A DNA stretch of 64,000 bases, taken from the NCBI GenBank assembly GCA_964565195.1, contig CAZMCQ010000004.1, forward strand, positions 64,133-128,132. The letters are read 5' to 3'. The stretch comes from an uncultured Candidatus Saccharibacteria bacterium. GTDB taxonomy: Bacteria > Patescibacteriota > Doudnabacteria > UBA920 > 2-01-FULL-46-14. Below the pieces are notes generated by a model, which did no database searches, was not told the DNA's origin, and saw only the letters and a list, made by a program, of their open reading frames with translations. Positions 39,939 through 59,356 of the stretch are shown piece by piece. Within the stretch, counting starts at the first letter, position 1; each line of letters opens with the position of its first letter. The translations under genes were made by a program, and so were the position numbers.

Positions 39939-40558
39939 TGCCAGAATCGTCCGAGAAACCAAAATACCTTCCGCCGCAAATCTGGATACCAGTTTTAACG
40001 TCCGCGATCTCCCTCGCGGTTGTTTTCGTTTTGTGGGGCCTAAACCGCGATGCGCTGTATCAGACGCAGAATCAAATTCCCTCTCCAGGTGGTGGAGAGG
40101 GTGAGGGAGAGGTCGCTAACTGGCAAACTTATCGGAATGAGGAGTATGGATTCGAGGTGAAGTATCCGCGTGAATGGTTTTCTTTACTAGATAAGAATAA
40201 TTTACAACTCTGGTCGCCTCAAAATTGGGACGCTCAGAACACTATTAATTCTTATGCCACGTTGCCAAATATAGCGTTTGCGATTCAAGATAATCCTGAA
40301 AAGTTAACTTTCCTTGAGTGGTTTCAGCAAAACTATGGGGAGAAAGATTTTGTTGGAGAAAATCCTAAAAAGGTGACCTTAAGCAATGGAAGTTCGGCTT
40401 ATTTTGTTAGACTGCCGGGTTTAGGAGATGGTGATAGCACTCTTTTTGTTTCCTCCGAGAAGCAGCGAGATTTTATCAAAATTTTTATTCAGAAGCCTTA
40501 TTCTGAACTCGAGAGTTTCGATAACCAAATCCTCTCCACTTTCAAATTCACGAAATAA
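39938..40558 (+). CDS. hypothetical membrane-anchored/exported protein carrying an in-frame palindromic repeat insert
   Basis: GTG start overlapping the previous stop. TM segment LTSAISLAVVFVLW. The PSPGGGEGEGE stretch is encoded by the palindromic repeat at 40077-40115. Confidence 0.5.
   Translation: MPESSEKPKYLPPQIWIPVLTSAISLAVVFVLWGLNRDALYQTQNQIPSPGGGEGEGEVANWQTYRNEEYGFEVKYPREWFSLLDKNNLQLWSPQNWDAQNTINSYATLPNIAFAIQDNPEKLTFLEWFQQNYGEKDFVGENPKKVTLSNGSSAYFVRLPGLGDGDSTLFVSSEKQRDFIKIFIQKPYSELESFDNQILSTFKFTK
40077..40115 (+). repeat. palindromic repeat family 1, copy F (CCCTCTCC-aggtggtg-GGAGAGGG tga GGGAGAGG), in-frame in a CDS
   Basis: Inverted repeat seen in the sequence. Confidence 0.6.
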
Positions 40559-40737
40559 TGTATTGACGTGGAAACCACGGCCGTAGTCTCCGCGTCGATG
40601 AAGAGATTGCAATGTCGGTGGAAAAAAGAGCTAGAATCTATTGTACCAAAATTCTAGCAATTGCGTGATTTTAGGTAGAAAATTTTTTATTTCTTTTCAT
40701 TACATAACTTTACAAGATTGAAAGTCAGCCTTTCTTC

Positions 40738-40768
40738 CAACCTCTCCCCATCGCCCGGGGAGAGGTGT
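40738..40768 (+). repeat. palindromic repeat family 1, copy A (CCTCTCCCC-atcgcc-CGGGGAGAGG), intergenic, followed by TATAAT
   Basis: Perfect 9-bp inverted repeat. Confidence 0.7.
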
Positions 40769-40774
40769 ATAATT

Positions 40775-40890
40775 TACTTGTCATTCCCGCCCCCCGATCG
40801 CAGTCGAGGGCAAGCTTCGCGGGAATATATAATAATGGAACTGGATTCCGGGTCCCTCCAAAGGCGGGCAGGCAGGCCCGGAATGACAGA
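40775..40890 (+). repeat. family 2 hairpin module variants (TGTCATTCCCGC...GCGGGAATATATAAT and GGATTCCGGG...CCCGGAATGACA) upstream of the glycosyltransferase
   Basis: Shares ATTCC(C/G)GC-loop-GC(G/C)GGAAT(GACA) with 42117-42144 and 58278-58302. Confidence 0.6.
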
Positions 40891-40898
40891 TAAAGATT

Positions 40899-42113
40899 AT
40901 GATACTGGGCATTGATGCGAGTCAGGCGAACAGGAAGGTCAGAAGCGGGACGGAGTGGTATGCTTTCCATTTGATAGATGAGTTCAAAACGCTGCTGCGC
41001 GATCGATCTGATGTCCGCGTGGTTTTGTATCTGAAAGACGCGCCGCAGGCAGATTTGGTCAATAACTTGCCCGACAATTTTTCGGTGAAGATATTGCGCT
41101 GGCCATTGAAATATTTTTGGGGACAAATCAGGTTATCATGGGATATCCTGCGAAATACGCCCGATGTATTATTTTGCCCAGCTCATACAATTCCAATCTC
41201 GACCTCTCTCCTAACCTCTCCCCATCACCTGGGGAGACGAAGAATGCGGGTATTTACGACCTTGCATGACATTGGGTTTGAGGATAATCCGGAACTTTAT
41301 GATAAATTGTCGCTTTGGTACCATCGCTGGTCGGCGAAATTTGCGGTGAAACATGCGTATCATATTTTTACGATCTCGGAATTTTCAAGGCAAAGAATTA
41401 TGGAAGTGTATGGGTGTCCGGAGGAGAAGTTGAGTGTCACTTATCTTGGGGTTAACCCCTCTGCCCCTTCGGGGCATCTCCCCTCGCCAGGAGAGAGAAA
41501 AAATGAATATTTATTATTTGTAGGCAGACTCGAGCCAAAGAAGAATATTCTGAACATCGTGAAGGCGTATGAAAAATTTGTGTCATTGCGAGCGCAAGCG
41601 AAGCAATCCCAGGGCGAAACCGAGATTGCTTCGTCGCAAGCTCCTCGCAACGACATTCCGGATCTTATCCTCGCGGGACGCAAAGTCAGGGTTGCCGATG
41701 TTGAAGATTATTTATCCAAAAGGTCTGAGCTTGCCAAACGCGTTAGATTCACGGGCTACATCAGCGAGGGGGAAAAGCAACAGCTTTATCGCGATACCGC
41801 CGTATTTGTTTTCCCCACTTTTTATGAAGGATTTGGGATCCCCATTCTGGAAGCCCAGAGTTTTGGCGTTCCGGTGATTACGTCCAATCGCACAGCTAAC
41901 CCAGAAATAGCGGGCGAGGGCGCGCTGATTGTTAATCCGGAAAGCGTGAATGACATCGCGGCAGCCATTGGGAAACTTTTGGGCGACCAAAGTTTACGTG
42001 AGGAGAAGATTAGATTAGGATTAGAGAATGTGAAGCGATTTAGTTGGGGAGAGACGGCAAAACTGACATTAGCAAAGCTGATGTCATCCCGGACTAGATC
42101 CGGGAACTATTAA
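40899..42113 (+). CDS. GT4-family glycosyltransferase carrying two in-frame palindromic repeat inserts
   Basis: ...YLLFVGRLEPKKNI... and ...FVFPTFYEGFGIPILEAQSFGVPVI... The inserts are TSPHHLGRRR (41205-41245) and PSAPSGHLPSPGER (41455-41500). The C-terminal tail SSRTRSGNY is encoded by hairpin 42087-42105. Confidence 0.85.
   Translation: MILGIDASQANRKVRSGTEWYAFHLIDEFKTLLRDRSDVRVVLYLKDAPQADLVNNLPDNFSVKILRWPLKYFWGQIRLSWDILRNTPDVLFCPAHTIPISTSLLTSPHHLGRRRMRVFTTLHDIGFEDNPELYDKLSLWYHRWSAKFAVKHAYHIFTISEFSRQRIMEVYGCPEEKLSVTYLGVNPSAPSGHLPSPGERKNEYLLFVGRLEPKKNILNIVKAYEKFVSLRAQAKQSQGETEIASSQAPRNDIPDLILAGRKVRVADVEDYLSKRSELAKRVRFTGYISEGEKQQLYRDTAVFVFPTFYEGFGIPILEAQSFGVPVITSNRTANPEIAGEGALIVNPESVNDIAAAIGKLLGDQSLREEKIRLGLENVKRFSWGETAKLTLAKLMSSRTRSGNY
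41205..41245 (+). repeat. palindromic repeat family 1, copy B (AACCTCTCCCC-atcacct-GGGGAGACG) inside the glycosyltransferase ORF
   Basis: Near-identical to copy A. Confidence 0.7.
41455..41500 (+). repeat. palindromic repeat family 1, copy C (CTGCCCC-ttc-GGGGCA; TCTCCCCT-cgcca-GGAGAGAG) inside the glycosyltransferase ORF
   Basis: Imperfect double hairpin. Confidence 0.55.
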
Positions 42114-42165
42114 GAATGGATTCCCGCCTTCGCGGGAATGACAATTTGAGAAAATGCTATAATAT
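42083..42165 (+). repeat. family 2 two-hairpin gene-boundary module: TCCCGGA-ctaga-TCCGGGA, AACTATT, ATTCCCGC-cttc-GCGGGAAT-GACA, then TGcTATAAT
   Basis: The glycosyltransferase stop codon lies inside the module. The -10 at 42158-42163 is 8 nt before the holB ATG. Paralogous to 58226-58308. Confidence 0.7.
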
Positions 42166-42171
42166 GCGCAA

Positions 42172-42951
42172 ATGATCGGACACGAGAAACAAAAAGCGAT
42201 GTTCGAGCGAGCCATAAAGAACGGCCAGCTGTCGCACGCCTATGTTCTGGCCGGGCCAGAGAACATCGGCAAAACAACGTTTGCGATCGAGTTCGCGCGC
42301 GAGCTTGGCTGCCACCCGATCCTCGACACCACGCTATTTGATCTAGAAAACAGTATGACGATCGAACAGGCGCGGGAACTGCAGCATATTTTGAATCTCA
42401 CCTCCGCGACCGGAAAGCACAAAGTCGCGATCATTTCTTACGCCGACCGGATGACCGAGGCAGCGGCCAATGCGATTCTCAAATTTTTGGAAAACCCGCC
42501 CAAGCGTACGATTATTTTTTTGATTACCGCAAATTACTATGCGCTTCTCCCGACGATTGCCTCGCGCGTGGTGCGCGTCAATTTTTCTCGCCTTTCCGAT
42601 GATGAAGTGCGCAAGGCAGTTTCCGATGAGAAAATCGTGGGATTGGCTTGCGGCCGTATCGGTCTAGCTAAACGTCTTGTCGAAAACCCCGAGGAATTGC
42701 AATTTTTTCAGAATGCGTGGCAGCAATACAAAGTTTTGGAAGCCGGAAAGCAGCACGAGCGCCTGCTTGCCGCCGAAAAATTTTATGAGCTGGAAAGTCA
42801 TTTGCTGGCCAAACTTTTTTCTTTCTGGATGCAGGAATGGGCCGAAAAACCAGAAGGTGTCACGCTGGGCCGGCGTCTCCGCACGGCATTTGCGGATCTG
42901 CGCTATAATTTAAATACTAAAATCCTTCTGGATAATTTATTTTTGCCATGA
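42172..42951 (+). CDS. holB: DNA polymerase III delta-prime subunit
   Basis: ...AYVLAGPENIGKTTFA... AAA+ clamp-loader fold. Confidence 0.75.
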   Translation: MIGHEKQKAMFERAIKNGQLSHAYVLAGPENIGKTTFAIEFARELGCHPILDTTLFDLENSMTIEQARELQHILNLTSATGKHKVAIISYADRMTEAAANAILKFLENPPKRTIIFLITANYYALLPTIASRVVRVNFSRLSDDEVRKAVSDEKIVGLACGRIGLAKRLVENPEELQFFQNAWQQYKVLEAGKQHERLLAAEKFYELESHLLAKLFSFWMQEWAEKPEGVTLGRRLRTAFADLRYNLNTKILLDNLFLP

Positions 42952-43994
42952 ACGGAAAAAGTATAGCGAGGGTTGCGCTTGTGATTCTGCCGGTTTTATT
43001 TACGGCCCAGGCCTGTAATTTTCTTTTTGGCGATATTCTGGGCGGCACTGACCAGGGCAGCGGCGTGCGAGGCGTATTCAAAAGCGTGGACGCCGGCGAG
43101 ACGTGGGCCGCGGCAAATGAATCCGCCGGAGAAGTCAAGCTTTCTGACTCGCAGGTTTATCGGCTGTTCATTGAGCGATATAACCCGATCAATATATTGG
43201 CCGCAACCTTGGATGAGGGCGTGTTTGCCAGTTCCAATGAAGCGGAGTCTTGGGGCATCCTTTTACCAAATTTTTCGACCTTTGAAGTTTTTATCAACCC
43301 AAACAACAGCCAGGAAATTTATGTGTCGGGATCGAGCGGCAAACTGGCCACAATCTTCAAAAGTTCCAATCGCGGCGGAACGTGGGAGGAAGTTTACCGG
43401 CAGCCGAATGTCGAGGCCGAGGTGAGCGCCATGGCTTTCGATCCGGTAACGCCCAGCACATTTTATGCCGGGCTTTCTTCGGGCACGCTGCTCAAAACGA
43501 CTGACGGCGGGGAAACGTGGAGAAACCTCGTGGATTTTGGCGACCGCATCAGGCAAATCGAAATCGCGCAAAGCCCCGCGCGGACAATTTATGTGTTGTT
43601 AAAGGGCAAGGGCCTAAAGCAAAGCTCGGACGGCGGCCAGTCCTGGGCCTCGCTGCTGCTGCCTGGCAATCCGGCAAGTTATAATCATTTAGTTTTAAGT
43701 CCCAGCAATCTCGTCTATGTCGCCACAGGGAATGGCCTTTATCAATCTCTTGATAGCGGGAAAACCTGGCGACGGTTCTTGCTTCCCGTGCAGGCGACCA
43801 GCGATGATGTCTCGGCTGTGGCCGTTGACCCGAAAAATTCGCGCTTTATTTACGCTGCCATAAGGTACGTGTTTTTTAAAAGCGCCGACGGCGGCGCGAC
43901 CTGGCAGACAGTATCGTTGCCGACGCGGCGTTTGATCAGCGATATCGTAGTTAATCCTAACGAACCCAACAAGATCTATGTCGGACTTCGCTGA
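42948..43994 (+). CDS. secreted BNR/Asp-box repeat (beta-propeller) protein
   Basis: Signal peptide plus repeated S-x-D-x-G-x-T-W motifs (SVDAGETW, TTDGGETW, SSDGGQSW, SLDSGKTW, SADGGATW). Confidence 0.7.
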   Translation: MNGKSIARVALVILPVLFTAQACNFLFGDILGGTDQGSGVRGVFKSVDAGETWAAANESAGEVKLSDSQVYRLFIERYNPINILAATLDEGVFASSNEAESWGILLPNFSTFEVFINPNNSQEIYVSGSSGKLATIFKSSNRGGTWEEVYRQPNVEAEVSAMAFDPVTPSTFYAGLSSGTLLKTTDGGETWRNLVDFGDRIRQIEIAQSPARTIYVLLKGKGLKQSSDGGQSWASLLLPGNPASYNHLVLSPSNLVYVATGNGLYQSLDSGKTWRRFLLPVQATSDDVSAVAVDPKNSRFIYAAIRYVFFKSADGGATWQTVSLPTRRLISDIVVNPNEPNKIYVGLR

Positions 43995-44517
43995 TTTTGA
44001 AAAAGCAATTGAGTTTTTGAAAGTAGAATTGGGAAAACTACGGACAGGGCGGGCGAATCCCGCGCTCATTGAAGATTTGAAAATTGATTATTATGGCGCG
44101 CCGACGCCAGTCAAGCAAGTCGCGAGCATTTCCGTGCCCGAAGCTCGGCAGCTCCTGGTGCAGCCGTGGGATAAAAATGCCCTCGCTCCTTTGGAAAAAG
44201 GCATCCGTGACGCGGGCCTCGGGCTCAACCCGACAAACGAAGGCGACAAGCTCCGTATCACTTTGCCGGCGCTTAATGAGGAACGCCGCCGTGAGCTTAC
44301 AAAACTCGTTGGCAAGTTTGCCGAAGAAGCGCGCGTGCGTATCCGCAATGCGCGCGAGGAAATTATAAAAGACTTGAAGCGCAAAGAAGAAGCCGGCACA
44401 ATTTCCGAAGACCAAAAGATGCGGGAGCAAAAAAAACTTCAGGACCAGGTGGACGAATTCAATAAAAAAGTCAAAGAAATCGCAGAAACCAAAGAAAAAG
44501 AAATAATGACGGTCTAG
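43978..44517 (+). CDS. frr: ribosome recycling factor
   Basis: ...FEKAIEFLKVELGKLRTGRANPALIEDLKIDYYG... Confidence 0.9.
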   Translation: MSDFADFEKAIEFLKVELGKLRTGRANPALIEDLKIDYYGAPTPVKQVASISVPEARQLLVQPWDKNALAPLEKGIRDAGLGLNPTNEGDKLRITLPALNEERRRELTKLVGKFAEEARVRIRNAREEIIKDLKRKEEAGTISEDQKMREQKKLQDQVDEFNKKVKEIAETKEKEIMTV

Positions 44518-44540
44518 CGGGTCTTGTGGTAGAATAAATT

Positions 44541-45653
44541 ATGATTCTGCTGACTATCCTCGTTTTTATCATCATCCTTGGCCTGCTTGTGTTTGTACAC
44601 GAGTTCGGCCATTTTGTGATGGCGAAGAGGGCCGGCATGCACGTCCAGGAGTTTGGTTTTGGTTTTCCGCCGCGATTGTTTGGCATTCGCCGCGGGGAGA
44701 CGATGTACTCCGTAAACTGGATACCGCTTGGCGGGTTTGTAAAAATCGCAGGCGAAGAGGGGCACTCGGACGACCCGCGCGCATTTGCCAACAAAAGCTT
44801 CGGGCAGCGCCTGGCAACACTCCTGGCCGGCGTGACCATGAACTTTATCCTCGGTTGGTTTTTGATTTTCCTGGGCTTTTTGGCCCTCGGCGCGCCGACT
44901 GACCTCGAGGATAATCCGTATTTGGCAAATGCGAATATTCGCAGTGAAGAAATAGGTATAATCGTGGTTCAAGGCGATTCGCCGGCCGAAGCTGCGGGTT
45001 TTCGCGCCGGCGACGTGATATTGTCAGTGGACGGGCAGAAATTTACCGAGATCATGCCGCTTATTGACTACACCAAAAGCCGCGCTGGCAGCCCGGTGAA
45101 TTATGAACTGAAACGCGGCAAAAAAATTATCAATAAGCAGGTGGTGCCGCGCACTGAAGTTGCCGAAGGAGAAGGGCCGGTCGGATTTGCACCGGCCAAA
45201 ATCGGGATTGTGACTTACCCCACTCTTACCGCTTTAAAGCTTTCGCTTTTTGCCTTTGTGAGCAAAGCTATCCTGATTTTCTCGGCCTTTGGCCTGTTGA
45301 TTAAAAACATCCTTACTACCGGCCACGTTATCGAAGGTTTGTCCGGTCCTGTTGGCATTGCCGTTCTGACGCGCGACTTTACGCAGCTCGGGATAATTTA
45401 CCTCGTGCAGTTCGCGGCCACGCTCTCTATAAATCTTGGGGTGATCAACGCCTTTCCCTTTCCGGCGCTCGACGGCGGCCGCGTGCTGTTCTTATTCGTT
45501 GAAAAGATCCGCGGAAAAAAGAGCATCAAATGGGAACAGTATGCGAACGTTATCGGCTTCGCGCTCCTGATGCTCCTTATGGTTGCCATCACCTTCCGCG
45601 ACGTCGGCAAATTTTCGGAGCAGTTTAAGAATTTGTTTGAGAGGATATTATAA
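44541..45653 (+). CDS. rseP: RseP-like site-2 zinc metalloprotease (M50) with a PDZ domain
   Basis: HEFGHFVMAKRAGM near the N-terminus, then multiple TM segments. Confidence 0.85.
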   Translation: MILLTILVFIIILGLLVFVHEFGHFVMAKRAGMHVQEFGFGFPPRLFGIRRGETMYSVNWIPLGGFVKIAGEEGHSDDPRAFANKSFGQRLATLLAGVTMNFILGWFLIFLGFLALGAPTDLEDNPYLANANIRSEEIGIIVVQGDSPAEAAGFRAGDVILSVDGQKFTEIMPLIDYTKSRAGSPVNYELKRGKKIINKQVVPRTEVAEGEGPVGFAPAKIGIVTYPTLTALKLSLFAFVSKAILIFSAFGLLIKNILTTGHVIEGLSGPVGIAVLTRDFTQLGIIYLVQFAATLSINLGVINAFPFPALDGGRVLFLFVEKIRGKKSIKWEQYANVIGFALLMLLMVAITFRDVGKFSEQFKNLFERIL

Positions 45654-45657
45654 ATCC

Positions 45658-45686
45658 TTGAAAAAGAACCTAGGTTGCTGTATAAT
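45658..45686 (+). promoter_or_regulatory. near-consensus promoter TTGAAA-17nt-TATAAT with the hicB ATG 6 nt downstream (leaderless)
   Basis: -35 at 45658-45663, -10 at 45681-45686, ATG at 45693. Confidence 0.6.
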
Positions 45687-45692
45687 CAGGAC

Positions 45693-45920
45693 ATGAAGCA
45701 CATCATCCAATTTCGCATAACCAAGTACGAAAACTACTATGTGGCCGAAGGGCTGGATCTGGCTATTGTTACCCAGGGTAATACTTTAGACGAGGTGGTG
45801 GCAAATTTGAAAGAAGCGCTCCAGCTTCATCTGGAAGGCGAAAATCTGACATCTCTTGGGCTTGCCCCTGATCTCCACGCCTTAGTTAATTATGAAGTAG
45901 TAGACCTAGTGCGTGCCTAA
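45693..45920 (+). CDS. hicB: HicB-family antitoxin
   Basis: MKHIIQFRITKYENYYVAEGLDLAIVTQGNTLDEVVANLKEALQLHLEGE... (UPF0150/HicB fold). Confidence 0.72.
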   Translation: MKHIIQFRITKYENYYVAEGLDLAIVTQGNTLDEVVANLKEALQLHLEGENLTSLGLAPDLHALVNYEVVDLVRA

Positions 45921-46155
45921 ACTTCGGGTATTGTCAGGGCAGGACTTGGTTAAAATTTTCAATAAGCTCGGATTCGCTGTGGCTGCCCAAAGAGGCAGCC
46001 ACATTAAACTTAGACGAGTTACGGCCGACGGTTCAGTTCAGATTTTGACTATTCCAAGTCACAAGGAAATCAAAACAGGGACGTTAAAGGCAATCTATAA
46101 CCAAGCTTTGCGATTTATTTCGGAAGCAGAATTGAGAAAGGAATTTTATCAATGA
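45913..46155 (+). CDS. hicA: HicA-family mRNA interferase toxin
   Basis: ...LSGQDLVKIFNKLGFAVAAQRGSHIKLRRV...VQILTIPSHKEIKTGTLKAIYNQA... Overlaps hicB by 8 nt. Confidence 0.78.
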   Translation: MPKLRVLSGQDLVKIFNKLGFAVAAQRGSHIKLRRVTADGSVQILTIPSHKEIKTGTLKAIYNQALRFISEAELRKEFYQ

Positions 46156-46303: not shown

Positions 46304-46306
46304 AGT

Positions 46307-49440: not shown

Positions 49441-49454
49441 ATTGATATACAGGG

Positions 49455-53255: not shown

Positions 53256-53273
53256 CGCTGCAGTTTGCCAAAG

Positions 53274-53304: not shown

Positions 53305-53341
53305 ATTTGTGTTATACTATTCTTTTCTTTATCTCACTTCT

Positions 53342-54142
53342 ATGGCCGCAATTTTGATTGACGGAAAAAAAATAGCACAGGGCATCTTGGATGACCTGAA
53401 AGCACGGGTCGCCAGTCTGCGCAAGTCCGGCAGGCAGCCGCGGCTGGCGGTTTTTTTGATCGGCCACAACCCGGCGTCCGAGTCGTATGTCAATGTCAAG
53501 CGGAAATGCGCGGCCAAAGTCGGCATTGAAGTCGAGATAAAGAACCATCCGGAAGCTACTACTGAAGAGAAATTAATCAGGGAAATCAAACTTGTCAACC
53601 AGCGAGCCGATATTTCCGGCATTTTAGTTCAACTCCCGCTTCCGCCCCATCTTGATAAACAGAGAGTACTCGGCGCGATAGACCCGAAGTTGGATGTAGA
53701 AGCTCATTCCCCGGCCGCTGCCGCGGTCCGCTATATCCTTTCGACTTTACCGATTGATCTCAAGTCAAAGAAAATTCTGATCATCGGTTCCGGAGACCTC
53801 GTGGGCCGGCCACTCGCCGAAATATTAAACAGAGAGAATCTGGATTTGAGAGTGGCAACCAGGCAGACAGAGAATCTTGAGGAAGTTGCCAAAACCGCGG
53901 ACGTGATTGTTACTGGCACGGGGCATGCCGGGCTTGTCCGAGCCGGAATGGTCAAAGCAGGCGCAGTCGTGGTTGATGCCGGCACGACAGGTTCAGAGGA
54001 TGGCAGCGTGGTTGGCGACGTCGATTTTGAAGGCGTTTCCAAAAAAGCCGGCTATCTCTCGCCGGTTCCCGGCGGAGTGGGGCCGGTAACCGTGGCGATG
54101 CTGCTCCGCGCCGTAGTTGACAACACCGAACGCAAACTATAA
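53342..54142 (+). CDS. folD: bifunctional methylenetetrahydrofolate dehydrogenase/cyclohydrolase
   Basis: MAAILIDGKKIAQGILDDLK... and ...PGGVGPVTVAMLL... Confidence 0.9.
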   Translation: MAAILIDGKKIAQGILDDLKARVASLRKSGRQPRLAVFLIGHNPASESYVNVKRKCAAKVGIEVEIKNHPEATTEEKLIREIKLVNQRADISGILVQLPLPPHLDKQRVLGAIDPKLDVEAHSPAAAAVRYILSTLPIDLKSKKILIIGSGDLVGRPLAEILNRENLDLRVATRQTENLEEVAKTADVIVTGTGHAGLVRAGMVKAGAVVVDAGTTGSEDGSVVGDVDFEGVSKKAGYLSPVPGGVGPVTVAMLLRAVVDNTERKL

Positions 54143-54151
54143 AGTATCCAC

Positions 54152-54613
54152 ATGGCAAAAAAACATCTCCTCACACAGGATGGATTGACCAAACTGAAAA
54201 ATGAGCTGGAGACATTAATCAAGGAGCGCCGCAGGGAAGTGATCGAGCGTATTCAGGAGGCGGTCGCGCATGGCGACCTCTCGGAAAACGCGGATTATGC
54301 GCAGGCCAAGGAAGAGCAGGCCTTTATCGAGGGCCGGATTCAGGAGCTTGAGGAGATCATTAAAAACGCGGAGATTATCCGGAGTAATGGCGACAGGAAT
54401 ATCATCTCGGTTGGCTCGACAGTGAAATTGAAGATTAATGGTCAGGAGAAAGTCTACACGATCGTCGGTTCGAATGAGGCGAATCCGGCCGAAGGAAAAA
54501 TCTCCAATGAATCGCTGGTCGGGCAGAGATTGCTCGGCGCGAAGCCCGGGGACAAGGTCGAGGTGACCACTCCCGGTGGCAAAGTACTGTACGAAATCGT
54601 GGAGATTCGCTAA
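54152..54613 (+). CDS. greA: transcription elongation factor GreA
   Basis: ...LTQDGLTKLKNELETLIKERRREVIERIQEAVAHGDLSENADYAQAKEEQAFIEGRI... Confidence 0.9.
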   Translation: MAKKHLLTQDGLTKLKNELETLIKERRREVIERIQEAVAHGDLSENADYAQAKEEQAFIEGRIQELEEIIKNAEIIRSNGDRNIISVGSTVKLKINGQEKVYTIVGSNEANPAEGKISNESLVGQRLLGAKPGDKVEVTTPGGKVLYEIVEIR

Positions 54614-54646
54614 AGCACGAACTACGAATCTATACGAACCTACGAA
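54614..54646 (+). repeat. TACGAAC tandem repeat element, copy 3 (CACGAAC-TACGAATCTA-TACGAAC-CTACGAA)
   Basis: Immediately after the greA stop and before terminator 54645-54670. Confidence 0.7.
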
Positions 54647-54670
54647 AAACTGCCTTCTTGGGCAGTTTTG
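54645..54670 (+). terminator. rho-independent terminator
   Basis: AAAAA-CTGCC-ttctt-GGGCAG-TTTT, then TGtTATAAT at 54671-54679. Confidence 0.65.
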
Positions 54671-54684
54671 TGTTATAATTAAGT

Positions 54685-54702
54685 TTGTAGATTCGTAAAT
54701 CT
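54685..54702 (-). repeat. inverted copy of the TACGAATCTA motif in the lysS leader
   Basis: TAGATTCGTA is the reverse complement of TACGAATCTA. Confidence 0.65.
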
Positions 54703-54718
54703 TAGTAGTTTGTACCCA

Positions 54719-56182
54719 ATGACGGAAAAAGAAGAACAGCTTTACCGGGACCGCCTGAAAAAACTGGAAGGATTGCGCGCCGCTGGCACCGATCCTTATC
54801 CAGCCAAAACGAAACGAACACACAAAGTCAGTGCAGCGCTGGATAATTTTTTTGTGCTTTCCAAAGGCGCCAAGCAGATTTCGCTGGCCGGGCGTATCCG
54901 CGGCCTGCGCGGCCATGGGGCAATAATTTTTGGCCATCTCGAGGACGGCAGCGCTAGCATGCAAATTCTGCTGCGCGGGGATCTGGTCGCGAAAAAAAAA
55001 TTTGATATCTTCAGAAAATATATTGACATCGGCGATTTCATCTCTGCGACCGGCAAGCTCATCCAAACGAAGCGCGGGGAAAAAACTTTGGAGGTTAAGG
55101 ACTATCAAATCCTCACCAAGAGTCTCCGCGCGCTGCCCGAGCAGTGGCATGGCCTGCAGGACATCGAGACGCGCCTGCGGCAGCGGTACTTAGATTTTAT
55201 TTCAAACCCTGAAGCCAAGGAGCTGTTTTTGAAGAAAGCGAAATTCTGGAAAGCTCTCCGGGAAAATTTAGAGAAGGCCGGGTTCATCGAGATTGATACG
55301 CCCGCGCTGGAGGATGTCGCCGGCGGCGCTGACGCGACGCCATTTGTCACGCATCACAACGCGCTTAACCGCGATTTTTATTTGCGGGTCTCTTTGGAAC
55401 TTCCCTTGAAGAAAATCATCATCGGGGGCTTTGAAAAAATATACGAGATCGGCAAAATTTTTCGCAACGAAGGGATTTCGACGGAACATCTGCAGGATTA
55501 TCTCGAGTGCGAATTTTACTGGGCTTACGCGGAGTATGAAGAGCTGATGGGTTTTGTGGAACAGCTTTATAAAGCCATTGTGAAGGAAACCACCGGAGGA
55601 CTAGCGACCGCATTCCAAGAGCAGAAGATAAACTGGGGCAAAAAATGGCCGCGCGTGGATTATTTCCGGCTGATCGAAAAAGAGCTGGACATAGACCTCG
55701 AAAAAATGTCGGATGAGAAGCTGAAAAAATATGCTCTCGGGCATGGCCTGAAAACCGATCCGGCCTGGGGCCGGGGACGGATCATTGATTATATTTTCAA
55801 AAAAAGGGTCAGGCCGAAAATTATCCAGCCGATGTTTCTCATCAATCATCCGATCGAGGTTTCGCCGTTGGCGAAACAGCACCGCCAGCTCGCCGGCCGC
55901 GTGGAGCGGTTCAATGTGATCGCCGCGGGCACAGAACTTGGCAACGGTTTCTCGGAACTGAACGACCCGGTTGATCAGCAAATGCGTTTCCAGGAGCAGA
56001 TGGAGCTGCGCCGCGCCGGAGACCCCGAAGCGCAGATGATGGACGAGTCCTTTGTCGAGGCGCTCGAGTATGGCCTGCCGCCGACGGCCGGTTATGGACT
56101 GTCGGAACGGCTTTTTGCAGTGCTGATGGATAAATCAGTAAGAGAAACGGTGGTTTTCCCGCCAATGAGGGGGAAAGATTAA
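54719..56182 (+). CDS. lysS: lysyl-tRNA synthetase (class II)
   Basis: MTEKEEQLYRDRLKKLEGLRAAGTDPYPAK... with class II motifs. The TTG at 54710 is an alternative start. Confidence 0.9.
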   Translation: MTEKEEQLYRDRLKKLEGLRAAGTDPYPAKTKRTHKVSAALDNFFVLSKGAKQISLAGRIRGLRGHGAIIFGHLEDGSASMQILLRGDLVAKKKFDIFRKYIDIGDFISATGKLIQTKRGEKTLEVKDYQILTKSLRALPEQWHGLQDIETRLRQRYLDFISNPEAKELFLKKAKFWKALRENLEKAGFIEIDTPALEDVAGGADATPFVTHHNALNRDFYLRVSLELPLKKIIIGGFEKIYEIGKIFRNEGISTEHLQDYLECEFYWAYAEYEELMGFVEQLYKAIVKETTGGLATAFQEQKINWGKKWPRVDYFRLIEKELDIDLEKMSDEKLKKYALGHGLKTDPAWGRGRIIDYIFKKRVRPKIIQPMFLINHPIEVSPLAKQHRQLAGRVERFNVIAAGTELGNGFSELNDPVDQQMRFQEQMELRRAGDPEAQMMDESFVEALEYGLPPTAGYGLSERLFAVLMDKSVRETVVFPPMRGKD

Positions 56183-56248
56183 CGGGGATTGCTTCGCTTG
56201 CGCTCGCAATGACAAGTCTTTGCGAGGAGCGAAGCGACGAAGCAATCT
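56183..56248 (+). repeat. long imperfect palindrome carrying CTTCGC...GCAATGACA (family 2 variant), abutting the next ATG
   Basis: GATTGCTTCGCTTGCGCTCGCAA-tgacaagtc-TTTGCGAGGAGCGAAGCGACGAAGCAATC. Confidence 0.55.
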
Positions 56249-56836
56249 ATGAAATTATTATTAGGCACGATGAATCCGGCAAAGGTCGCGGATTATCAGA
56301 AATATTTGGTTCATTCGAAATTAGAAATTGTTACGCTTAAAGATTTACAATTTTTTGAAGAACCGCTTGAGATAGGAGCAACATTTGAGCAAAATGCCCT
56401 GCAGAAAGCGAAATTCTACGCTGAACGTACAGAATATCCGACCCTTGCCGATGACGGCGGATTTGAAGTTGACGCGCTGGATGGACGGCCGGGGATTGAT
56501 TCCAGTCGCTGGCTTGGGCCGAATGCCACAGATGAAGACAAGATAAATAAAATTATCGAGTTATTAAAAGACGTGCCGGAAGAGCAGCGGACCGCTCGAC
56601 TAAGAAATGTGACAGTAATATACTTTCCAGAGGAGCGTGATTATATTATGAGTAAGGGGAAAATGGAAGGCACCATTCCCGAGAAGCCGAGCCCGGTGAG
56701 AGTTTTCGGGTTTCCTTACCGCTCGGCGCTGTTTCTACCGCAGTTCAATAAATATTATGCTGAACTTGACGGTGAGTCGCATAGAAAAGCAGTTTGTAAA
56801 GAGCTATTATTAAAACTGGAGCCCTACCTTAATTGA
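56249..56836 (+). CDS. non-canonical purine NTP pyrophosphatase (RdgB/Ham1 family)
   Basis: MKLLLGTMNPAKV... and ...FEVDALDGRPGIDS... Confidence 0.68.
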   Translation: MKLLLGTMNPAKVADYQKYLVHSKLEIVTLKDLQFFEEPLEIGATFEQNALQKAKFYAERTEYPTLADDGGFEVDALDGRPGIDSSRWLGPNATDEDKINKIIELLKDVPEEQRTARLRNVTVIYFPEERDYIMSKGKMEGTIPEKPSPVRVFGFPYRSALFLPQFNKYYAELDGESHRKAVCKELLLKLEPYLN

Positions 56837-56837
56837 C

Positions 56838-56905
56838 GAAGTCATCCTGAGGACGGGAGTCCGAAGGATCTCACGCGCGAGATTCTTCGCTTCGCTCAGA
56901 ATGAC
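56838..56905 (+). repeat. palindrome CGAAGGATCTCACGCG/CGCGAGATTCTTCG + CTTCGCTCAGAATGACA (family 2 variant) upstream of serS
   Basis: Seen in the sequence. AATGACA lies 14 nt before the serS ATG. Confidence 0.55.
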
Positions 56906-56917
56906 AAAATCCAGAAT

Positions 56918-58252
56918 ATGTTAGATATAAAATATATAAGAGAAAATAAGGAGGCGGTGAAAAAAGCAATCATAGATAAGAGAATTGTTCTCAATTTGGA
57001 CGAGCTTTTGGCATTGGATGAAAAGCGGCGGAAACTCATTGCCGAGATCGATCAGTTGCGCGCGAAGAAAAACGACATTGCCGAAAAAATGCAAAGCGCG
57101 GATGCTTCCACAAAAGAACGCCTGAAAATCGACGGCAAAGAGGTCAAAGAAAAGATAGCGGCGCTCGAAAAAGAACTGACTGATGCGGAGCAGCGTTATA
57201 ACGAGCTCATGCTCCTTGTGCCGAACATCCCATCTAAAGATACGCCTGTCGGCGGCGAGCAGGATTTTAAAGTCATTTCGACCTGGGGCAGGCAGCCGAA
57301 ATTTGATTTTCCGATTAAAGATCATATTGAACTCGGAAAATCACTGGATATTTTGGATCTGGAGAGGGGAGTGAAGACCGCTGGTTTTCGCGGCTATTAC
57401 CTCAAAAACGAAGGCGCGCTTTTGCACCTCGGCGTTTTGATGCTGGCCTTTCAGAAAATGGTAAAAAAAGGCTTTACACCGATGATCCCTCCGACTCTGA
57501 TCAAAGAGTTCGCGCTTATCGGGAGCGGCCACTTTCCGACAGGAAGACAGGAAATATACGAGGTCGAGGAATATGCCCCCTCACCCCACCCTCTCCCGCC
57601 AGGGGAGAGGGATAAAGGGAGAGGGCCAGAAACCAAGTTTCTGGTTGGCACGGCCGAGCCGTCGCTTTTGGCCTATCACGTCGGCGAAACATTGGAGGAA
57701 AAGAATTTACCTGTTAAGCTTGTCGGCATCTCGCCGTCTTACCGGCGCGAAGTCGGTGGTTATGGCAAAGACACCAAAGGCGTTTATCGCACCCATGAGT
57801 TCACAAAAGTGGAGCAAGTGGTTCTGTGTAAGGATCTCCTGGAATCAGAGCATTGGTTTACAGAGATGGCACGGATCGCGCAGGAGCTTTTACAGGACTT
57901 GAAGCTGCCGCATCGCGTCATTCAGATTGCCACCGTGGAGATGGGGGCTGGGAAATACAAAATGTATGACATCGAGACCTGGATGCCCGCGCGCGGCGCC
58001 TATGGCGAGACGCATTCCTGCTCCAACCTCACGGACTGGCAGGCGCGGCGGCTGAATATCAAATACCGCGACAAGGCCGGTAAGACAGAATATGTTCACA
58101 CTTTGAATAATACGGTACTCGCCAGCCCTAGAATTTTGATCGCGATTTTGGAAAATAACCAGCAAAAAGACGGCTCTGTGGAAGTGCCCAAAGATTTGCG
58201 AGATTTTGTGGGGGAAAAGAAATTGACCCCGCAGGGGTCATCCCGCACTTGA
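56918..58252 (+). CDS. serS: seryl-tRNA synthetase carrying an in-frame palindromic repeat insert and a repeat-encoded C-terminal tail
   Basis: MLDIKYIRENKEAVKKAI... The insert YAPSPHPLPPGERDKGRGPETK lies between EIYEVEE and FLVGTAEPSL. The C-terminus ...TPQGSSRT is encoded by hairpin 58226-58260. Confidence 0.9.
   Translation: MLDIKYIRENKEAVKKAIIDKRIVLNLDELLALDEKRRKLIAEIDQLRAKKNDIAEKMQSADASTKERLKIDGKEVKEKIAALEKELTDAEQRYNELMLLVPNIPSKDTPVGGEQDFKVISTWGRQPKFDFPIKDHIELGKSLDILDLERGVKTAGFRGYYLKNEGALLHLGVLMLAFQKMVKKGFTPMIPPTLIKEFALIGSGHFPTGRQEIYEVEEYAPSPHPLPPGERDKGRGPETKFLVGTAEPSLLAYHVGETLEEKNLPVKLVGISPSYRREVGGYGKDTKGVYRTHEFTKVEQVVLCKDLLESEHWFTEMARIAQELLQDLKLPHRVIQIATVEMGAGKYKMYDIETWMPARGAYGETHSCSNLTDWQARRLNIKYRDKAGKTEYVHTLNNTVLASPRILIAILENNQQKDGSVEVPKDLRDFVGEKKLTPQGSSRT
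57577..57625 (+). repeat. palindromic repeat family 1, copy D (CCCTCTCCC-gcca-GGGGAGAGGG) inside serS
   Basis: Perfect 9-10 bp inverted repeat, plus a flanking GGGAGAGGG. Confidence 0.7.
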
Positions 58253-58308
58253 TGCGGGATCCAGAACTATTTGTATAGATTTCCGCTTTCGCGGGAATGA
58301 CATATAAT
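58226..58308 (+). repeat. family 2 two-hairpin gene-boundary module (paralog of 42083-42165): ATCCCGCA-cttga-TGCGGGAT, AACTATT, TTCCGC-tttc-GCGGGAAT-GACA-TATAAT
   Basis: The serS stop TGA lies in the hairpin loop. The -10 at 58303-58308 is 7 nt before the ddl ATG. Confidence 0.7.
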
Positions 58309-58315
58309 TGTGTTT

Positions 58316-59356
58316 ATGGCCAAACGCAAACTTCGTATTGCCCTTATATTTGGCGGGACCTCGCAGGAACGCGAAGTCTCTTTGCGCAGCGCCAAATCAA
58401 TAGCCAAGAATTTAAGTACCAAAAAATATGAGATTTTTCCCGTTGAAATTGATTTGAATGGAAAATGGTTGATTTCAAGTTCCACGATTCATCAAATCGG
58501 CAAAGAAGTAAAAACCCAGAAGGCCACGACGCGCGAGTTAGCCCCGGTCGATGTTCATGACCAGGGTAAGATTGATGTTGCCTTGCTGGCGCTGCACGGC
58601 CCGGGCGGGGAGGATGGAACTATTCAGGGCATGCTGGAACTGCTCAAAATTCCTTATACGTGTTCAGGAGTGCTCGCCTCGGCTCTGGCCATGGACAAAG
58701 CGCGGACAAAGCGGCTTGTGGCTGCGGCCGGTGTGCCTGTGCCGCCGGATGTGGTGATCAAAAAAAACGACTATGACCCCCGCTCGCCTCTCCCCCTCGT
58801 GAGGGGGAGATTGAGAGGGGGTCGTGGAAAATTCGTCATCAAACCCAATAAAATGGGCTCCTCGCTCGGGATTACCATTGTTTCTGGCAATGGCTCAACC
58901 ATTGGTCGAGCCATTGAACGCGCCTTCAAGTTTGACGACGAGATTTTGGTTGAAGCCCATATCGAGGGCCGCGAGATTACGGTACCGGTGCTGGGCAATG
59001 ACCAGGCTGAAGCTTTGCCGACAATTGAGATTTTGCCGTGGAAAAAATCGACTTTCTATGATTATGCGGCGAAGTACGAAGAGGGTGGATCAGAACATAT
59101 CATTCCTGCGCCGCTTACCAAAAAACAAGAACGCGAAGCTCAGGATTATGCGCTCGCCGCTCACCAAACCCTCGGTTGCCGCGGCGTGACGCGTTCTGAT
59201 TTTATCCTGGGCGAAAATGGGCAGTTTTATTTTTTGGAAATCAATACTATTCCGGGCATGACGCCGACCTCGCTTGTGCCGCAATCGGCGCAGGCCGCGG
59301 GCATTAGCTTTACTAAATTCCTTGACCGACTTATTAAACTGGCGCGTGAGCGATGA
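58316..59356 (+). CDS. ddl: D-alanine--D-alanine ligase carrying an in-frame palindromic repeat insert
   Basis: MAKRKLRIALIFGGTSQEREVSL... with ATP-grasp motifs. The insert PRSPLPLVRGRLRGGRG precedes KFVIKPNKMGSSLGI. Confidence 0.85.
   Translation: MAKRKLRIALIFGGTSQEREVSLRSAKSIAKNLSTKKYEIFPVEIDLNGKWLISSSTIHQIGKEVKTQKATTRELAPVDVHDQGKIDVALLALHGPGGEDGTIQGMLELLKIPYTCSGVLASALAMDKARTKRLVAAAGVPVPPDVVIKKNDYDPRSPLPLVRGRLRGGRGKFVIKPNKMGSSLGITIVSGNGSTIGRAIERAFKFDDEILVEAHIEGREITVPVLGNDQAEALPTIEILPWKKSTFYDYAAKYEEGGSEHIIPAPLTKKQEREAQDYALAAHQTLGCRGVTRSDFILGENGQFYFLEINTIPGMTPTSLVPQSAQAAGISFTKFLDRLIKLARER
58776..58822 (+). repeat. palindromic repeat family 1, copy E (CCTCTCCCCCTC-gtga-GGGGGAGAttGAGAGGGGG) inside ddl
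   Basis: Long imperfect hairpin. Confidence 0.7.

Follow-up and report, generated by a model that had tools for sequence, protein, structure and literature searches.

What kind of element can lie in frame within several conserved genes of one bacterium, and how it is maintained there, is the question raised by a 64-kb stretch (hereafter the window) of a Candidatus Doudnabacteria genome. An initial annotation had described six copies of a hairpin element in this DNA, five inside otherwise conserved ORFs and one intergenic, and had likened them to Rickettsia palindromic elements (RPEs).

Six structured elements in the window

We found all six copies within a few bases of the starts given for them. 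Five are indeed in-frame, in the genes for a membrane protein, a family-4 glycosyltransferase (GT4; two copies), SerS and Ddl, and the host ORFs of all five are intact and have the expected Pfam domains. The core that had been proposed, CCTCTCCCC-loop-GGGGAGAGG, occurs in perfect form only at 40741–40765; the other copies are variants of it.

The first copy, c1 (40079–40113, plus strand), is a three-arm, triplex-type element, CCCTCTCC-AGGTGGT-GGAGAGGG-TGA-GGGAGAGG(T). It lies in the linker of a 206-aa membrane-anchored protein with a weak PsbP_2-like match (39938–40558, plus strand). Its peptide is IPSPGGGEGEGEV, and not LSPSPGER as had been read at 40077; the other four quoted peptides were right. 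The intergenic copy, c2 (40727–40766, minus strand), consists of a degenerate outer arm, CCTTTCTTCC, followed by AA and the perfect hairpin CCTCTCCCC-ATCGCCC-GGGGAGAGG, and stands directly 5′ of TGTATAAT. It gives a terminator-like match and belongs to the same subfamily as c3 (31 of 40 positions identical). Both c3 (41203–41238; minus strand GTCTCCCC-AGGTGAT-GGGGAGAGG-TTA-GGAGAGAGG) and the degenerate c4 (41458–41497; CCTCTGCCCC-TTC-GGGGCA plus TCTCCCC-TCGCCA-GGAGAGA) reside in the 404-aa GT4 gene (40899–42113, plus strand), at sites R1 and R2, where they encode STSLLTSPHHLGRRR and PSAPSGHLPSPGER, respectively.

The remaining two copies have four arms. c5 (57577–57624), CCCTCACCCC-A-CCCTCTCCC-GCCA(G)-GGGAGAGGG-ATAAA-GGGAGAGGG, lies in serS (seryl-tRNA synthetase, 444 aa; 56918–58252, plus strand), and encodes APSPHPLPPGERDKGRGPE; either strand of it is scored as a triplex motif. 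c6 (58776–58822), CCCCCGCT-cgc-(C)TCTCCCCCT-cgtg-AGGGGGAGA-ttg-AGAGGGGG(T), lies in ddl (D-alanine–D-alanine ligase, 348 aa; 58310–59356, plus strand) and encodes DPRSPLPLVRGRLRGGRG; its third arm mirrors the second one. When the copies were folded as single strands, the z-scores were −4.4 for c1, −3.7 for c2, −2.6 for c3, −3.5 and −3.8 for c5, and −5.7 and −5.9 for c6, while that of c4 (−1.6) was not significant. Both orientations of the element are seen. The copies do use different frames, as had been noticed, but only two: the TCT-frame (40079 and 41203) and the CTC-frame (41458, 57577 and 58776). The description of the host genes as essential does not carry over to the membrane protein and the GT4, as the essentiality of neither is known.

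In the window, the exact 9-mer CCTCTCCCC was observed 5 times against 0.38 expected, and none of 100 shuffles reached 5. A three-arm search returned four strong loci (40079–40113, 41203–41238, 57577–57624 and 58776–58822, corresponding to c1, c3, c5 and c6) and one weak match (56155–56187), whereas 30 Markov simulations gave 0.1 per window. The search of related genomes that had been proposed was also productive: over 2.03 Mb surveyed, 25 of 167 CPR loci carried the motifs, and 37 of the 58 copies were inside open frames of at least 150 codons.

The elements resemble triplex-motif repeats of proteobacteria

The general layout is a pyrimidine arm, a 4–7 nt loop, the complementary purine arm, a 2–5 nt spacer and a mirror purine arm; a fourth arm, present in some copies, turns the whole element into a long bulged palindrome. 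The third arm, which identifies the family, had been overlooked in the initial annotation. Judged by architecture and sequence, the elements belong to the BoxC/PIT/TM_ECO G/C-rich triplex-motif repeats. The TM_ECO pattern, CCCTCNCCC-N3-6-GGGNGAGGG-N3-GGGNGAGGG, has 3610 copies across 262 proteobacterial genomes (Holder 2015, PMC4666352). Both groups share the order of C-rich arm, loop, G-rich arm, short spacer (often TTA) and second G-rich mirror arm, nearly the same arms (CCCTCTCCC, GGGAGAGGG and GGGTGAGGG), and inverted, 'palindromic' four-arm forms. Both are also dispersed, multi-copy and patchy between related genomes, with no associated transposase. The hrpB–mrcB spacer of E. coli K-12, CCCTCACCCTAACCCTCTCCCTCAAGGGAGAGGGG, is nearly identical to c5, CCCTCACCCCACCCTCTCCCGCCAGGGGAGAGGG, and the exact hairpin is present in >120 IMG/VR contigs, flanked in many by GGGTGAGGGG or CCCCTCACCC.

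The match to the strict TM_ECO pattern is not complete: the spacer of c5 has 5 nt instead of 3, the arms of c1 are 8 nt, c3 and c2 are shifted in register, subfamilies with other arms exist here (e.g. TCTCCCCCT), and c4 is too degenerate for a confident classification. The hosts differ as well, CPR/Patescibacteria being absent from the lineages named in PMC4666352. Moreover, descriptions of the E. coli members (BoxC, PIT and TM_ECO) place them only in intergenic spacers (Holder 2015, PMC4666352), whereas five of the six window copies and the majority of those in the CPR loci are inside ORFs. In vivo triplex formation has no support even in E. coli (Holder 2015, PMC4666352). We consider it likely that the six elements are copies of one dispersed family of short (∼35–48 nt) structured DNA repeats of the 'intrastrand triplex motif' type, with the origin proposed below.

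Inserts occupy recurrent loops of the host proteins

Presence and absence of the inserts varied among the orthologs of SerS, Ddl, GT4 and aspS. No repeat-type peptide was found at the insert site in 114 of 119 SerS homologs, and most Ddl and most GT4 homologs had no insert. c5 adds 12 aa to SerS relative to the nearest empty orthologs, and c3 likewise adds 12 aa to GT4 at R1. At R2, c4 swaps out a native GT4 segment with no lengthening, and c6 occupies the place of a helix-forming Ddl segment that most orthologs have. In homologs of the membrane protein, the conserved domain begins directly after the c1 site (∼aa 55–60); in the L288 ortholog this linker carries another copy, which differs from c1 and lies on the opposite strand.

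The inserts sit between conserved blocks of housekeeping proteins, as had been proposed. In the AlphaFold (AF2) model of SerS (pLDDT 90.6) the insert is a coil of pLDDT ∼58–61 placed between strands 214–216 and 240–242, and in that of Ddl (pLDDT 90.9) it has a pLDDT of 55, falling to <50 at model residues 167–169. Both inserts are predicted to be low-confidence surface segments within otherwise confident models.

The inserts had been expected to be lineage-specific. They are absent from most orthologs, but the closest sampled relative shares the serS and ddl copies (orthologous copies of c5 and c6 are carried by L286). The same 34–35 nt subfamily also sits at non-orthologous sites elsewhere. 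That of c6, subfamily B, was found at four other sites in other genomes: it is identical at 34 of 35 nt between the window ddl and two intergenic sites of L002, and further sites are inside L002 aspS and adjoining a GT4 gene in L206. The arm of c4 with its TCGCCA loop recurs at position 11600 of L001, within an alpha/beta-hydrolase gene. Other subfamilies fill exactly the same loops in some orthologs, the SerS loop having four different occupant types, which marks these sites as recurrent hot spots. The term 'lineage-specific' is too simple for this pattern. The earlier view of a DNA-level dispersed repeat, and not a protein motif, is borne out by the two frames, both orientations, the intergenic copy and the non-orthologous sites.

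We propose that copies entered protein-coding genes of this Candidatus Doudnabacteria bacterium and of some of its CPR relatives. Those that persist would be in-frame, have no stop codon in the frame used and lie in permissive surface loops or linkers. The inserts would be read through as Pro/Ser/Gly/Glu/Arg-rich peptides, and are probably translated and tolerated. A repeat class that is already known would thereby appear in a new lineage and in a coding context new to it, with an RPE-like lifestyle.

The arms are nearly invariant in diverged genes

Between orthologous copies whose host genes are ∼72% identical, 1 of 89 arm positions had changed, compared with 7 of 27 positions in loops and spacers (Fisher P = 1.3e-4). 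Synonymous third positions were identical in 33 of 33 cases, against 52–55% gene-wide (P = 2.7e-9). Similarly, five serS copies are 88–100% identical in genes that are 70–74% identical. Such near-invariant arms in diverged genes were unexpected and point either to homogenisation against other copies or to a constraint at the nucleic-acid level, which may act on a DNA hairpin or triplex or on an mRNA hairpin. Across the five genomes of the serS set the loop has been kept too, a pattern that structural constraint explains no better than homogenisation or repeated re-insertion. This conservation is not universal, as the ddl copies in L292 and L293 have decayed.

The near-invariance of the arms within genes saturated at synonymous sites could also mean that the host keeps the copies for a function of the nucleic-acid structure, such as making a polymerase or ribosome pause, signalling recombination or uptake, or binding a protein, and does not merely tolerate selfish DNA. 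In addition, the loops and spacers of the window and L286 copies diverge at about the gene-wide rate, indicating that the copies are old, and copies are closer to their ortholog than to paralogous copies in the same genome. We nevertheless regard a host function as rather unlikely. Most orthologs do without the inserts, c4 and the L292 and L293 copies have decayed, and other copies of the same subfamily in the genome could have kept the arms alike by homogenisation. The E. coli members had no function in promoter, terminator, polymerase and conjugation assays (Holder 2015, PMC4666352).

Spread of the copies and the remaining alternatives

We saw neither an insertion event nor a target-site duplication, nor any two near-identical strains with a site empty in one and filled in the other, so we infer active mobility from distribution alone. 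The triplex-motif repeats proposed here may have spread without an element-encoded or nearby transposase, probably via host replication, repair or recombination at hairpin- or triplex-forming DNA; replacement of native residues, and not just addition to them, would fit this route.

A dispersed multi-copy family with subfamily sequences conserved across genomes, and with varying presence at orthologous sites, could also be produced by classical non-autonomous transposable elements (MITE- or REP/REPIN-like) moved by a transposase encoded elsewhere, e.g. RAYT or an HUH enzyme of the IS200/IS605 type. REP elements are known to be driven by HUH transposases that recognise hairpins. However, none of the 14 window ORFs scanned against Pfam was a transposase, the palindromes have no GTAG or CGTC tag beside them, neither terminal inverted repeats beyond the arms nor target-site duplications were noticed, and elements of 35–48 nt are shorter than known MITEs. 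Transposase or integrase remnants are also missing near the E. coli members (Holder 2015, PMC4666352). We judge this origin improbable.

Far less credible is that the inserts are ordinary low-complexity Pro/Gly/Ser/Glu/Arg linkers under protein-level selection. The DNA palindromy would then arise incidentally, since the codons of Pro (CCN) and Gly (GGN), like those of Leu/Ser (CTC/TCT) and Glu/Arg (GAG/AGA), are reverse complements of each other. Every intragenic copy does encode a peptide rich in these residues in a flexible region, and CCTCTCCCC with one mismatch allowed is weakly enriched (22 versus 13.5). But the intergenic c2 shares its subfamily with the GT4 copy c3, and other genomes have the same 34–35 nt sequence in intergenic DNA, as E. 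coli does in its spacers, so the linker explanation is already contradicted by intergenic and cross-phylum copies. Two frames and both orientations yield unrelated peptides, protein-level selection would not need the synonymous third positions to be kept or explain the mirror third arm of c6, and the segments are missing from most orthologs. That the inserts are artefacts of assembly or binning, for instance chimeras joined at repeats, can practically be dismissed. The related contig L286 starts inside the serS element, which shows that these repeats do interrupt assemblies, but the same insertions are found in independent assemblies (NCBI, ENA, JGI and Logan), every copy is flanked on either side by an intact frame, and the differences between orthologous copies are point changes, as real evolution would produce.

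Comparison with other small repeats

RPEs are ∼150 bp long, and the peptide that they encode is conserved and has tens of residues (Ogata et al. 2000, as given in PMC10969869). Like them, the elements described here are palindromic, lie in-frame in unrelated housekeeping genes of a small, reduced genome without destroying them, add peptide segments that fit the protein fold, and have no known transposase. The in-gene part of the Rickettsia analogy therefore stands. Membership in the RPE family, in contrast, was rejected on size (35–48 nt, or 12–16 codons) and on the triplex-motif architecture and sequence; the likeness is one of lifestyle, and no sequence relationship is claimed. The present elements also differ in belonging to a repeat class found across phyla and in the prominent reuse of one loop by different subfamilies.

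REP/REPIN sequences are likewise short (20–40 nt) GC-rich palindromes in many copies, single or in inverted pairs, but they are extragenic by definition, GTAG/CGTC-tagged and associated with a RAYT gene (Bertels & Rainey 2011; Di Nocera 2013, PMC3733652). None of these three properties was seen here, and the mirror third arm is a feature of the present elements and not of REPs.

The uptake sequences USS (Pasteurellaceae) and DUS (Neisseria) are recognition words of 9–12 nt with known receptor and function. They are repeated genome-wide and are frequent inside coding regions, where they use tolerant frames and the less-conserved parts of proteins, while their nucleotide sequence is conserved. 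The elements studied here share the coding location and the nucleotide conservation, but are longer and structured, and nothing connects them with DNA uptake. Cyanobacterial very small dispersed repeats and MITEs, and the Neisseria Correia/NEMIS elements, are also small and sometimes in or overlapping coding sequence, but differ in sequence and length; for these we found no description, in literature including PMC2759123, of essential enzymes that carry them in frame at recurrent loops. Finally, a second palindromic family, which had also been overlooked, is present in the GT4 gene at 41582–41654.

Six copies of a dispersed hairpin element in one part of the window

Re-reading of the window sequence placed all six copies of the palindromic element where the initial annotation had located them: c1 at 40079–40113, c2 at 40727–40766 (intergenic), c3 at 41203–41238, c4 at 41458–41497, c5 at 57577–57624 and c6 at 58776–58822. 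The four open reading frames that were named as hosts are intact, and a Pfam scan found the expected domains. These are a membrane-anchored protein (39938–40558; weak PsbP_2-like match), which contains c1, a GT4 glycosyltransferase (40899–42113; Glyco_transf_4 and Glycos_transf_1), which contains c3 and c4, SerS (56918–58252; Seryl_tRNA_N and tRNA-synt_2b) with c5, and Ddl (58310–59356; Dala_Dala_lig_N and Dala_Dala_lig_C) with c6. The window belongs to a metagenome-assembled genome of Candidatus Doudnabacteria (CPR/Patescibacteria), and its SerS, Ddl and GT4 proteins are each 100% identical to NCBI entries under that name. The NCBI database copy of the window SerS has a different start and is labelled "partial".

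Translation of the copies bore out the claim that different frames are used; there are two relative to the arm, and both element orientations are found. Four of the five peptides quoted earlier were correct, but the one at 40077 is really IPSPGGGEGEGEV. Likewise, the proposed core-loop-core arrangement exists, but its perfect form occurs just once, at 40741–40765, and the others are not perfect. The exact core, CCTCTCCCC, is present five times in the window versus 0.38 expected, and none of 100 shuffles reached five. When one mismatch was allowed, the core word was weakly enriched (22 versus 13.5 expected), and therefore the case rests on the composite structure. Nearest-neighbour folding of the single strands, which scores hairpin energies and has triplexes outside its model, gave z-values of −3.5 to −5.9 against shuffles for c1, c2, c5 and c6, a moderate value for c3 (z = −2.6) and a non-significant one for c4 (z = −1.6). 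Across the whole window no Rfam family reached its gathering score, and the region 39900–42200 produced chance-level matches only, so the hairpins do not belong to a described RNA family. No tRNAs were found in the window.

All six copies fall at 40–59 kb, and none in the part of the window with the ribosomal-protein, secY, adk and glycolysis genes; stronger purifying selection in highly expressed genes may be the cause of this clustering. The 19-kb stretch to which the triplex-type copies (see below) are confined has a somewhat lower G+C (0.46–0.54; window 1–40000 versus 40000–59000).

The elements have the three-arm architecture of intrastrand triplex motifs

The copies have an extra feature that had gone unremarked: the hairpin is followed (on the other strand, preceded) by a spacer of 2–5 nt and a further arm. 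In this notation c1 reads CCCTCTCC-AGGTGGT-GGAGAGGG-TGA-GGGAGAGG, c3, on the minus strand, GTCTCCCC-AGGTGAT-GGGGAGAGG-TTA-GGAGAGAGG, c5 CCCTCACCCC-A-CCCTCTCCC-GCCAG-GGGAGAGGG-ATAAA-GGGAGAGGG, and c6 CCCCCGCT-cgc-TCTCCCCCT-cgtg-AGGGGGAGA-ttg-AGAGGGGG. In c6, the third arm (AGAGGGGG) mirrors the purine arm (AGGGGGAGA), a relation that would not arise from simple direct repetition and that is the exact requirement of an antiparallel purine-motif triplex. A purpose-written search for a pyrimidine arm followed, after a loop, by its complement and, after a spacer, by a mirror arm (8-nt arms, at most one mismatch) passed c1, c5 and c6 (both strands) and, on the minus strand, c3, plus one weak match, and Markov simulations of the window yielded 0.1 three-arm matches per window. 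c4 fails this search, and c2 has a degenerate outer arm only. The purine strand of c5 (GGGGAGAGGGATAAAGGGAGAGGG, 57602–57625) has four G3 tracts and would also fit the canonical G-quadruplex motif, in the coding strand and the mRNA, as a candidate alternative to the hairpin or triplex fold.

A full-text search with the arm words led to the "intrastrand triplex motifs" of Holder et al. 2015 (PMC4666352), formerly known as BoxC and PIT elements. The published pattern is CCCTCNCCC-N3-6-GGGNGAGGG-N3-GGGNGAGGG, with one stem mismatch permitted; 3610 copies were counted in 262 proteobacterial genomes, and cyanobacteria and Neisseria are also rich in G/C-rich triplex motifs (PMC4666352). Holder et al. 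report a stable in vitro triplex for the single-stranded motif; they found neither promoter nor terminator activity, noted no transposase in the neighbourhood and no known function, and tied the motif to local genome instability (PMC4666352). Compared with this pattern, c5 has all three arms exact and a second spacer (ATAAA) of 5 nt instead of 3. In c1 the spacer TGA fits and each 9-nt arm has one mismatch, in c3 the spacer TTA fits and the arm register is shifted (CCTCTCCCC), and in c6 the arm word differs. We read the E. coli K-12 hrpB–mrcB spacer directly and found CCCTCTCCCTGTGGGAGAGGGCCGGGGTGAGGGC and, inverted, CCCTCACCCTAACCCTCTCCCTCAAGGGAGAGGGG, both unannotated there. The latter is near-identical to CCCTCACCCCACCCTCTCCCGCCAGGGGAGAGGG of c5, with differences essentially confined to the loop and linker. 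In IMG/VR the exact hairpin was present in at least 120 contigs, many of the sites being flanked by GnnAGGGTGAGGGG or CCCCTCACCCnnnC, and therefore the class is widespread well beyond CPR.

The window elements fit the BoxC/PIT/TM_ECO repeats of E. coli in three-block arm architecture and resemble them in arm sequence, with deviating spacer lengths, and they too are dispersed, multi-copy and patchy among relatives, with no transposase among the 14 window ORFs covered by the Pfam scan. The difference lies in location, as the E. coli members are described as extragenic, whereas five of the six window copies are in long open frames; the extragenic habit is, however, a descriptive trait of the E. 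coli members and stands outside the sequence definition.

The parallel with Rickettsia palindromic elements (RPE), drawn in the initial annotation, holds in part. RPE comprise ten Rickettsia families and are recognised by a conserved encoded peptide. The window elements resemble them in lying in-frame in unrelated protein-coding genes without disruption, and AlphaFold2 models of SerS and Ddl predict inserts at the protein surface that are compatible with the fold. The parallel fails on length, since RPE measure ~100–150 bp (about 150 bp) (PMC10969869). At 35–48 nt, the window elements are set apart from them. REP/REPIN elements carry a GTAG/CGTC tag at one palindrome end, are extragenic and have a cognate RAYT gene, whereas no window copy has GTAG/CGTC beside it, most copies are intragenic, and no RAYT was found among the scanned window ORFs. 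MITEs are IS-derived, typically 100–400 bp long (window elements, 35–48 nt), and have terminal inverted repeats and target-site duplications. No such duplications were seen in the flanks of same-subfamily copies, but the empty and filled sites set against each other belong to genes 55–75% protein-identical, in which short ones could be missed.

The same protein loops are occupied in different genomes

Alignment with T. thermophilus SerS leaves a gap of ~19 residues exactly at the element. The loop is short in 114 of 119 non-self homologs (e.g. EVEEYS-TDKEKELK-FLVGT), and PSPLQGEGRGEV occupies it in 5 of the 119, the underlying DNA in these carriers being the hairpin CCCTCTCC-TTTACAA-GGAGAGGG-TA-GGGGTGAGG. 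Further variants at this loop are SPELPPSPPSLTKEGVGG in the CPR locus L126 and TTSPQPSPQKGREP in L195 (52% SerS identity), and the closest sampled relative, L286, has the window's own serS variant (PSPYPLPQGEREKGRGEE). The earlier proposal that the SerS insert is lineage-specific therefore agrees with the short loop of most homologs, but not with the sharing of the variant by L286 and the occupation of the same loop by other variants elsewhere. We rejected a single ancestral insertion, as a neighbour-joining tree sets the window SerS among insert-free orthologs and P0018, a SerS carrying PSSLQGEGKGEV, beside the insert-free P0019 and P0022. The scatter of carriers among insert-free SerS implies either several gains or several precise losses, for the separation of which this rough tree is too crude. 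The L286 contig begins inside the serS triplex-motif copy (L286 1–49), and therefore assemblies break at these repeats; gene calling in CPR MAGs may likewise suffer from them.

In most orthologs the ddl site is a K-rich, helix-type segment (DYKKNPKKYLSKLRGK). The window element takes the place of native residues, with a net gain of ~5 aa; it is common to L286 (75% identity) and has decayed relatives in L292 and L293. Structure modelling by AlphaFold2, suggested together with the initial annotation, placed the inserts of these two proteins in low-pLDDT surface segments. SerS has a mean pLDDT of 90.6, and its insert (217–239) is a coil between strands 214–216 and 240–242 with a pLDDT of ~58–61. 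The mean for Ddl is 90.9, with 55 for the insert and <50 at model residues 167–169, just before the invariant K-P strand. Such low values within confident models point to predicted flexible surface segments of well-folded enzymes. As the frames are intact on both sides, the inserts are presumably translated.

In the GT4 gene, site R1 (c3), after CPAHTIPLIHP, is empty in ~36 of 45 orthologs, and its occupants are unrelated: the window has a subfamily C element (the c3 type), L287 two tandem copies including one of subfamily B (the c6 type), and L288 a further three-arm copy together with a hairpin of another kind. At site R2, c4 takes the place of native sequence. A metagenome scan with GT4 gave three close orthologs, the remainder being at paralog level (33–39% identity); the distant paralogs in L221, L233 and L244 have triplex motifs at about this position between the two domains. 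In the membrane protein, c1 sits in the linker that joins the transmembrane helix to the conserved domain (beginning at ~residue 55–60 in homologs), and this linker of the L288 ortholog holds a different copy in opposite-strand orientation. An in-frame subfamily B copy in aspS of L002 (L002 2200–2245) lengthens the product by ~11 aa relative to those of the window, L001 and L003. In L001 and L002, the alpha/beta-hydrolase encoded beside serS has differing element-derived peptides immediately ahead of its GHSFGG nucleophile motif (copies at L001 11571–11618 and L002 ~9230–9260 and 9700).

The arms are nearly invariant

The ddl genes of the window and L286 are 75% identical in protein, 72% in DNA and 55% at third positions of identical residues; the corresponding values for serS of L001 and L002 are 76, 72 and 52%. 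Across three orthologous element pairs, only 1 of 89 arm positions had changed versus 7 of 27 in loops and spacers (Fisher p = 1.3e-4), and the arm changes are far below the 28% divergence (binomial p = 7e-12). Within the elements, third positions at identical residues were the same in 33 of 33 cases (p = 2.7e-9). Among five genomes in which serS is 70–74% identical, the 34-nt element is 88–100% identical, its loop being conserved too. Exceptions to this conservation are c4 and the ddl copies of L292 and L293, all of which have decayed.

The loops of the window and L286 diverge at about the gene-wide rate, and therefore the copies are old and have not been re-inserted recently. Disordered loops give no protein-level reason for the conservation, so that either the nucleic acid is under constraint or the copies have been homogenised. 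Conversion by unseen same-subfamily copies might still be a source of the conserved arms, whereas we rejected genome-wide gene conversion because the copies resemble their ortholog and not the paralogs in the same locus set. It is also conceivable, if improbable in our judgement, that the intragenic copies are not mere tolerated junk and that their arms are near-invariant because the folded nucleic acid acts in cis. It could do so as a genome-wide structural signal (in replication, repair, recombination or DNA uptake), as a programmed pause in transcription or translation, or in self-propagation by homing to the same protein loops; the fold in question could be a DNA hairpin, a DNA triplex or an mRNA hairpin of −33 to −38 kcal/mol. 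If this were true, a structural DNA code would run through the essential genes of CPR bacteria, and BoxC, an orphan repeat for 30 years, would acquire a function open to testing.

Distribution, subfamilies and a possible mode of spread

Three-arm motifs occurred in 25 of 167 CPR loci (2.03 Mb), and close relatives, L003 and L125 among them, had none. Within the CPR loci, 37 of 58 copies (64%) lie inside open frames of at least 150 codons versus 82% for random positions. Genes are thus mildly avoided, and most copies are intragenic all the same, in contrast to the E. coli repeats, which are described as intergenic.

Within a subfamily, arm and loop alike are retained from one genome or site to another. 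Subfamily B, of the form TCTCCCCCT-CRTG-AGGGGGAGA-nnn-AGAGGGGG, is found in ddl of the window and of L286, in L002 aspS, at two intergenic sites of L002 and beside a GT4 gene of L206; the window copy matches the L002 intergenic copies at 34 of 35 nt. The c4 arm with its TCGCCA loop was seen again in the L001 hydrolase gene, and c2 and c3 form a pair identical at 31 of 40 positions. Judged from sequence, this distribution is typical of a dispersed repeat family that has putative master sequences.

No insertion event or target duplication was seen in the copies compared. Targeting of homopurine tracts by triplex formation is unsupported beyond the SerS site: empty SerS sites have a purine run of 13–14 nt (top 2–6% of gene windows), for which K/E-rich permissive loops account equally well, and the runs at empty Ddl and GT4 sites are unremarkable (12–68%). 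The best-supported mechanism would be that structured repeats of the BoxC/TM type spread without a transposase of their own, presumably through template-switch or repair events at hairpin- or triplex-forming DNA, and would persist in genes only at sites that combine the right frame, no stop codons and a permissive loop. Such events would be consistent with two observations, namely that native residues have often been replaced and that the same loops have been used again.

The BoxC/PIT/TM repeats of E. coli were recognised as long ago as the 1990s, with their function and spread unexplained, and RPE are, to our knowledge, nearly alone among selfish palindromes in having colonised protein-coding genes. 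The present locus unites both, as a triplex-motif repeat with an RPE lifestyle in a CPR bacterium of very small genome. The repeat class is already known, and its intergenic habit is broken here; in the searchable literature we found no description of repeats of this type inside CPR genes or of in-frame BoxC/TM copies. The intragenic copies would represent a second, independent system for repeat-made protein loops in essential enzymes (SerS, Ddl, AspRS and glycosyltransferases). Its main points of interest are the recurrent hot spots and the conserved arms: different subfamilies that struck the same loop in different genomes serve as natural replicates, and invariant arms with free loops are a clean evolutionary signal by which selection on structure becomes directly testable.

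Other hairpin families and neighbouring features

A second palindromic family, F2, is present at 41582–41654 and 56186–56246, with outer arms GTCATTGCGAG...CTCGCAAYGAC and inner arms CGAAGCAATC...GATTGCTTCG. Within GT4, an in-frame copy (SLRAQAKQSQGETEIASSQAPRND) adds ~23 aa relative to empty orthologs and has an RNA fold of −36 kcal/mol (z = −4.75); orthologs have F2 (L287) or a different family (L288) at the same site. One F2 copy fills the aspS–ham1 spacer. The alpha/beta-hydrolase beside serS in the relatives also has repeat-derived N- and C-terminal extensions and an ARNDE-type F2 insert.

Hairpins of a third family, F3, start or end with GTCATYCC / GGGAATGAC and lie at 40780–40826, 40843–40887, 42083–42107, 42118–42142, 58237–58262 and 58279–58301. 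Two of them fit ATTCCC-N8-GGGAAT (2 matches versus 0.24 expected), which we take to be the Neisseria dRS3 consensus. The last codons of GT4 (SSRTRSGNY*) and SerS (GSSRT*) come from two F3 copies. c2, which a scan called terminator-like, and F3 hairpins abut boxes resembling TATAAT that precede the next gene (GAGAGGTGTATAAT, GGGAATATATAAT and GGGAATGACATATAAT; 40760–40773, 40821–40833 and 58292–58307). A promoter consensus scan made no calls at these boxes; their arrangement suggests combined terminator and promoter spacers built of repeats. Finally, in the region 45675–46155 a small ORF with a weak antitoxin-like match sits ahead of a HicA toxin homolog (E = 7e-16); the two probably represent a HicAB toxin–antitoxin pair among housekeeping genes.
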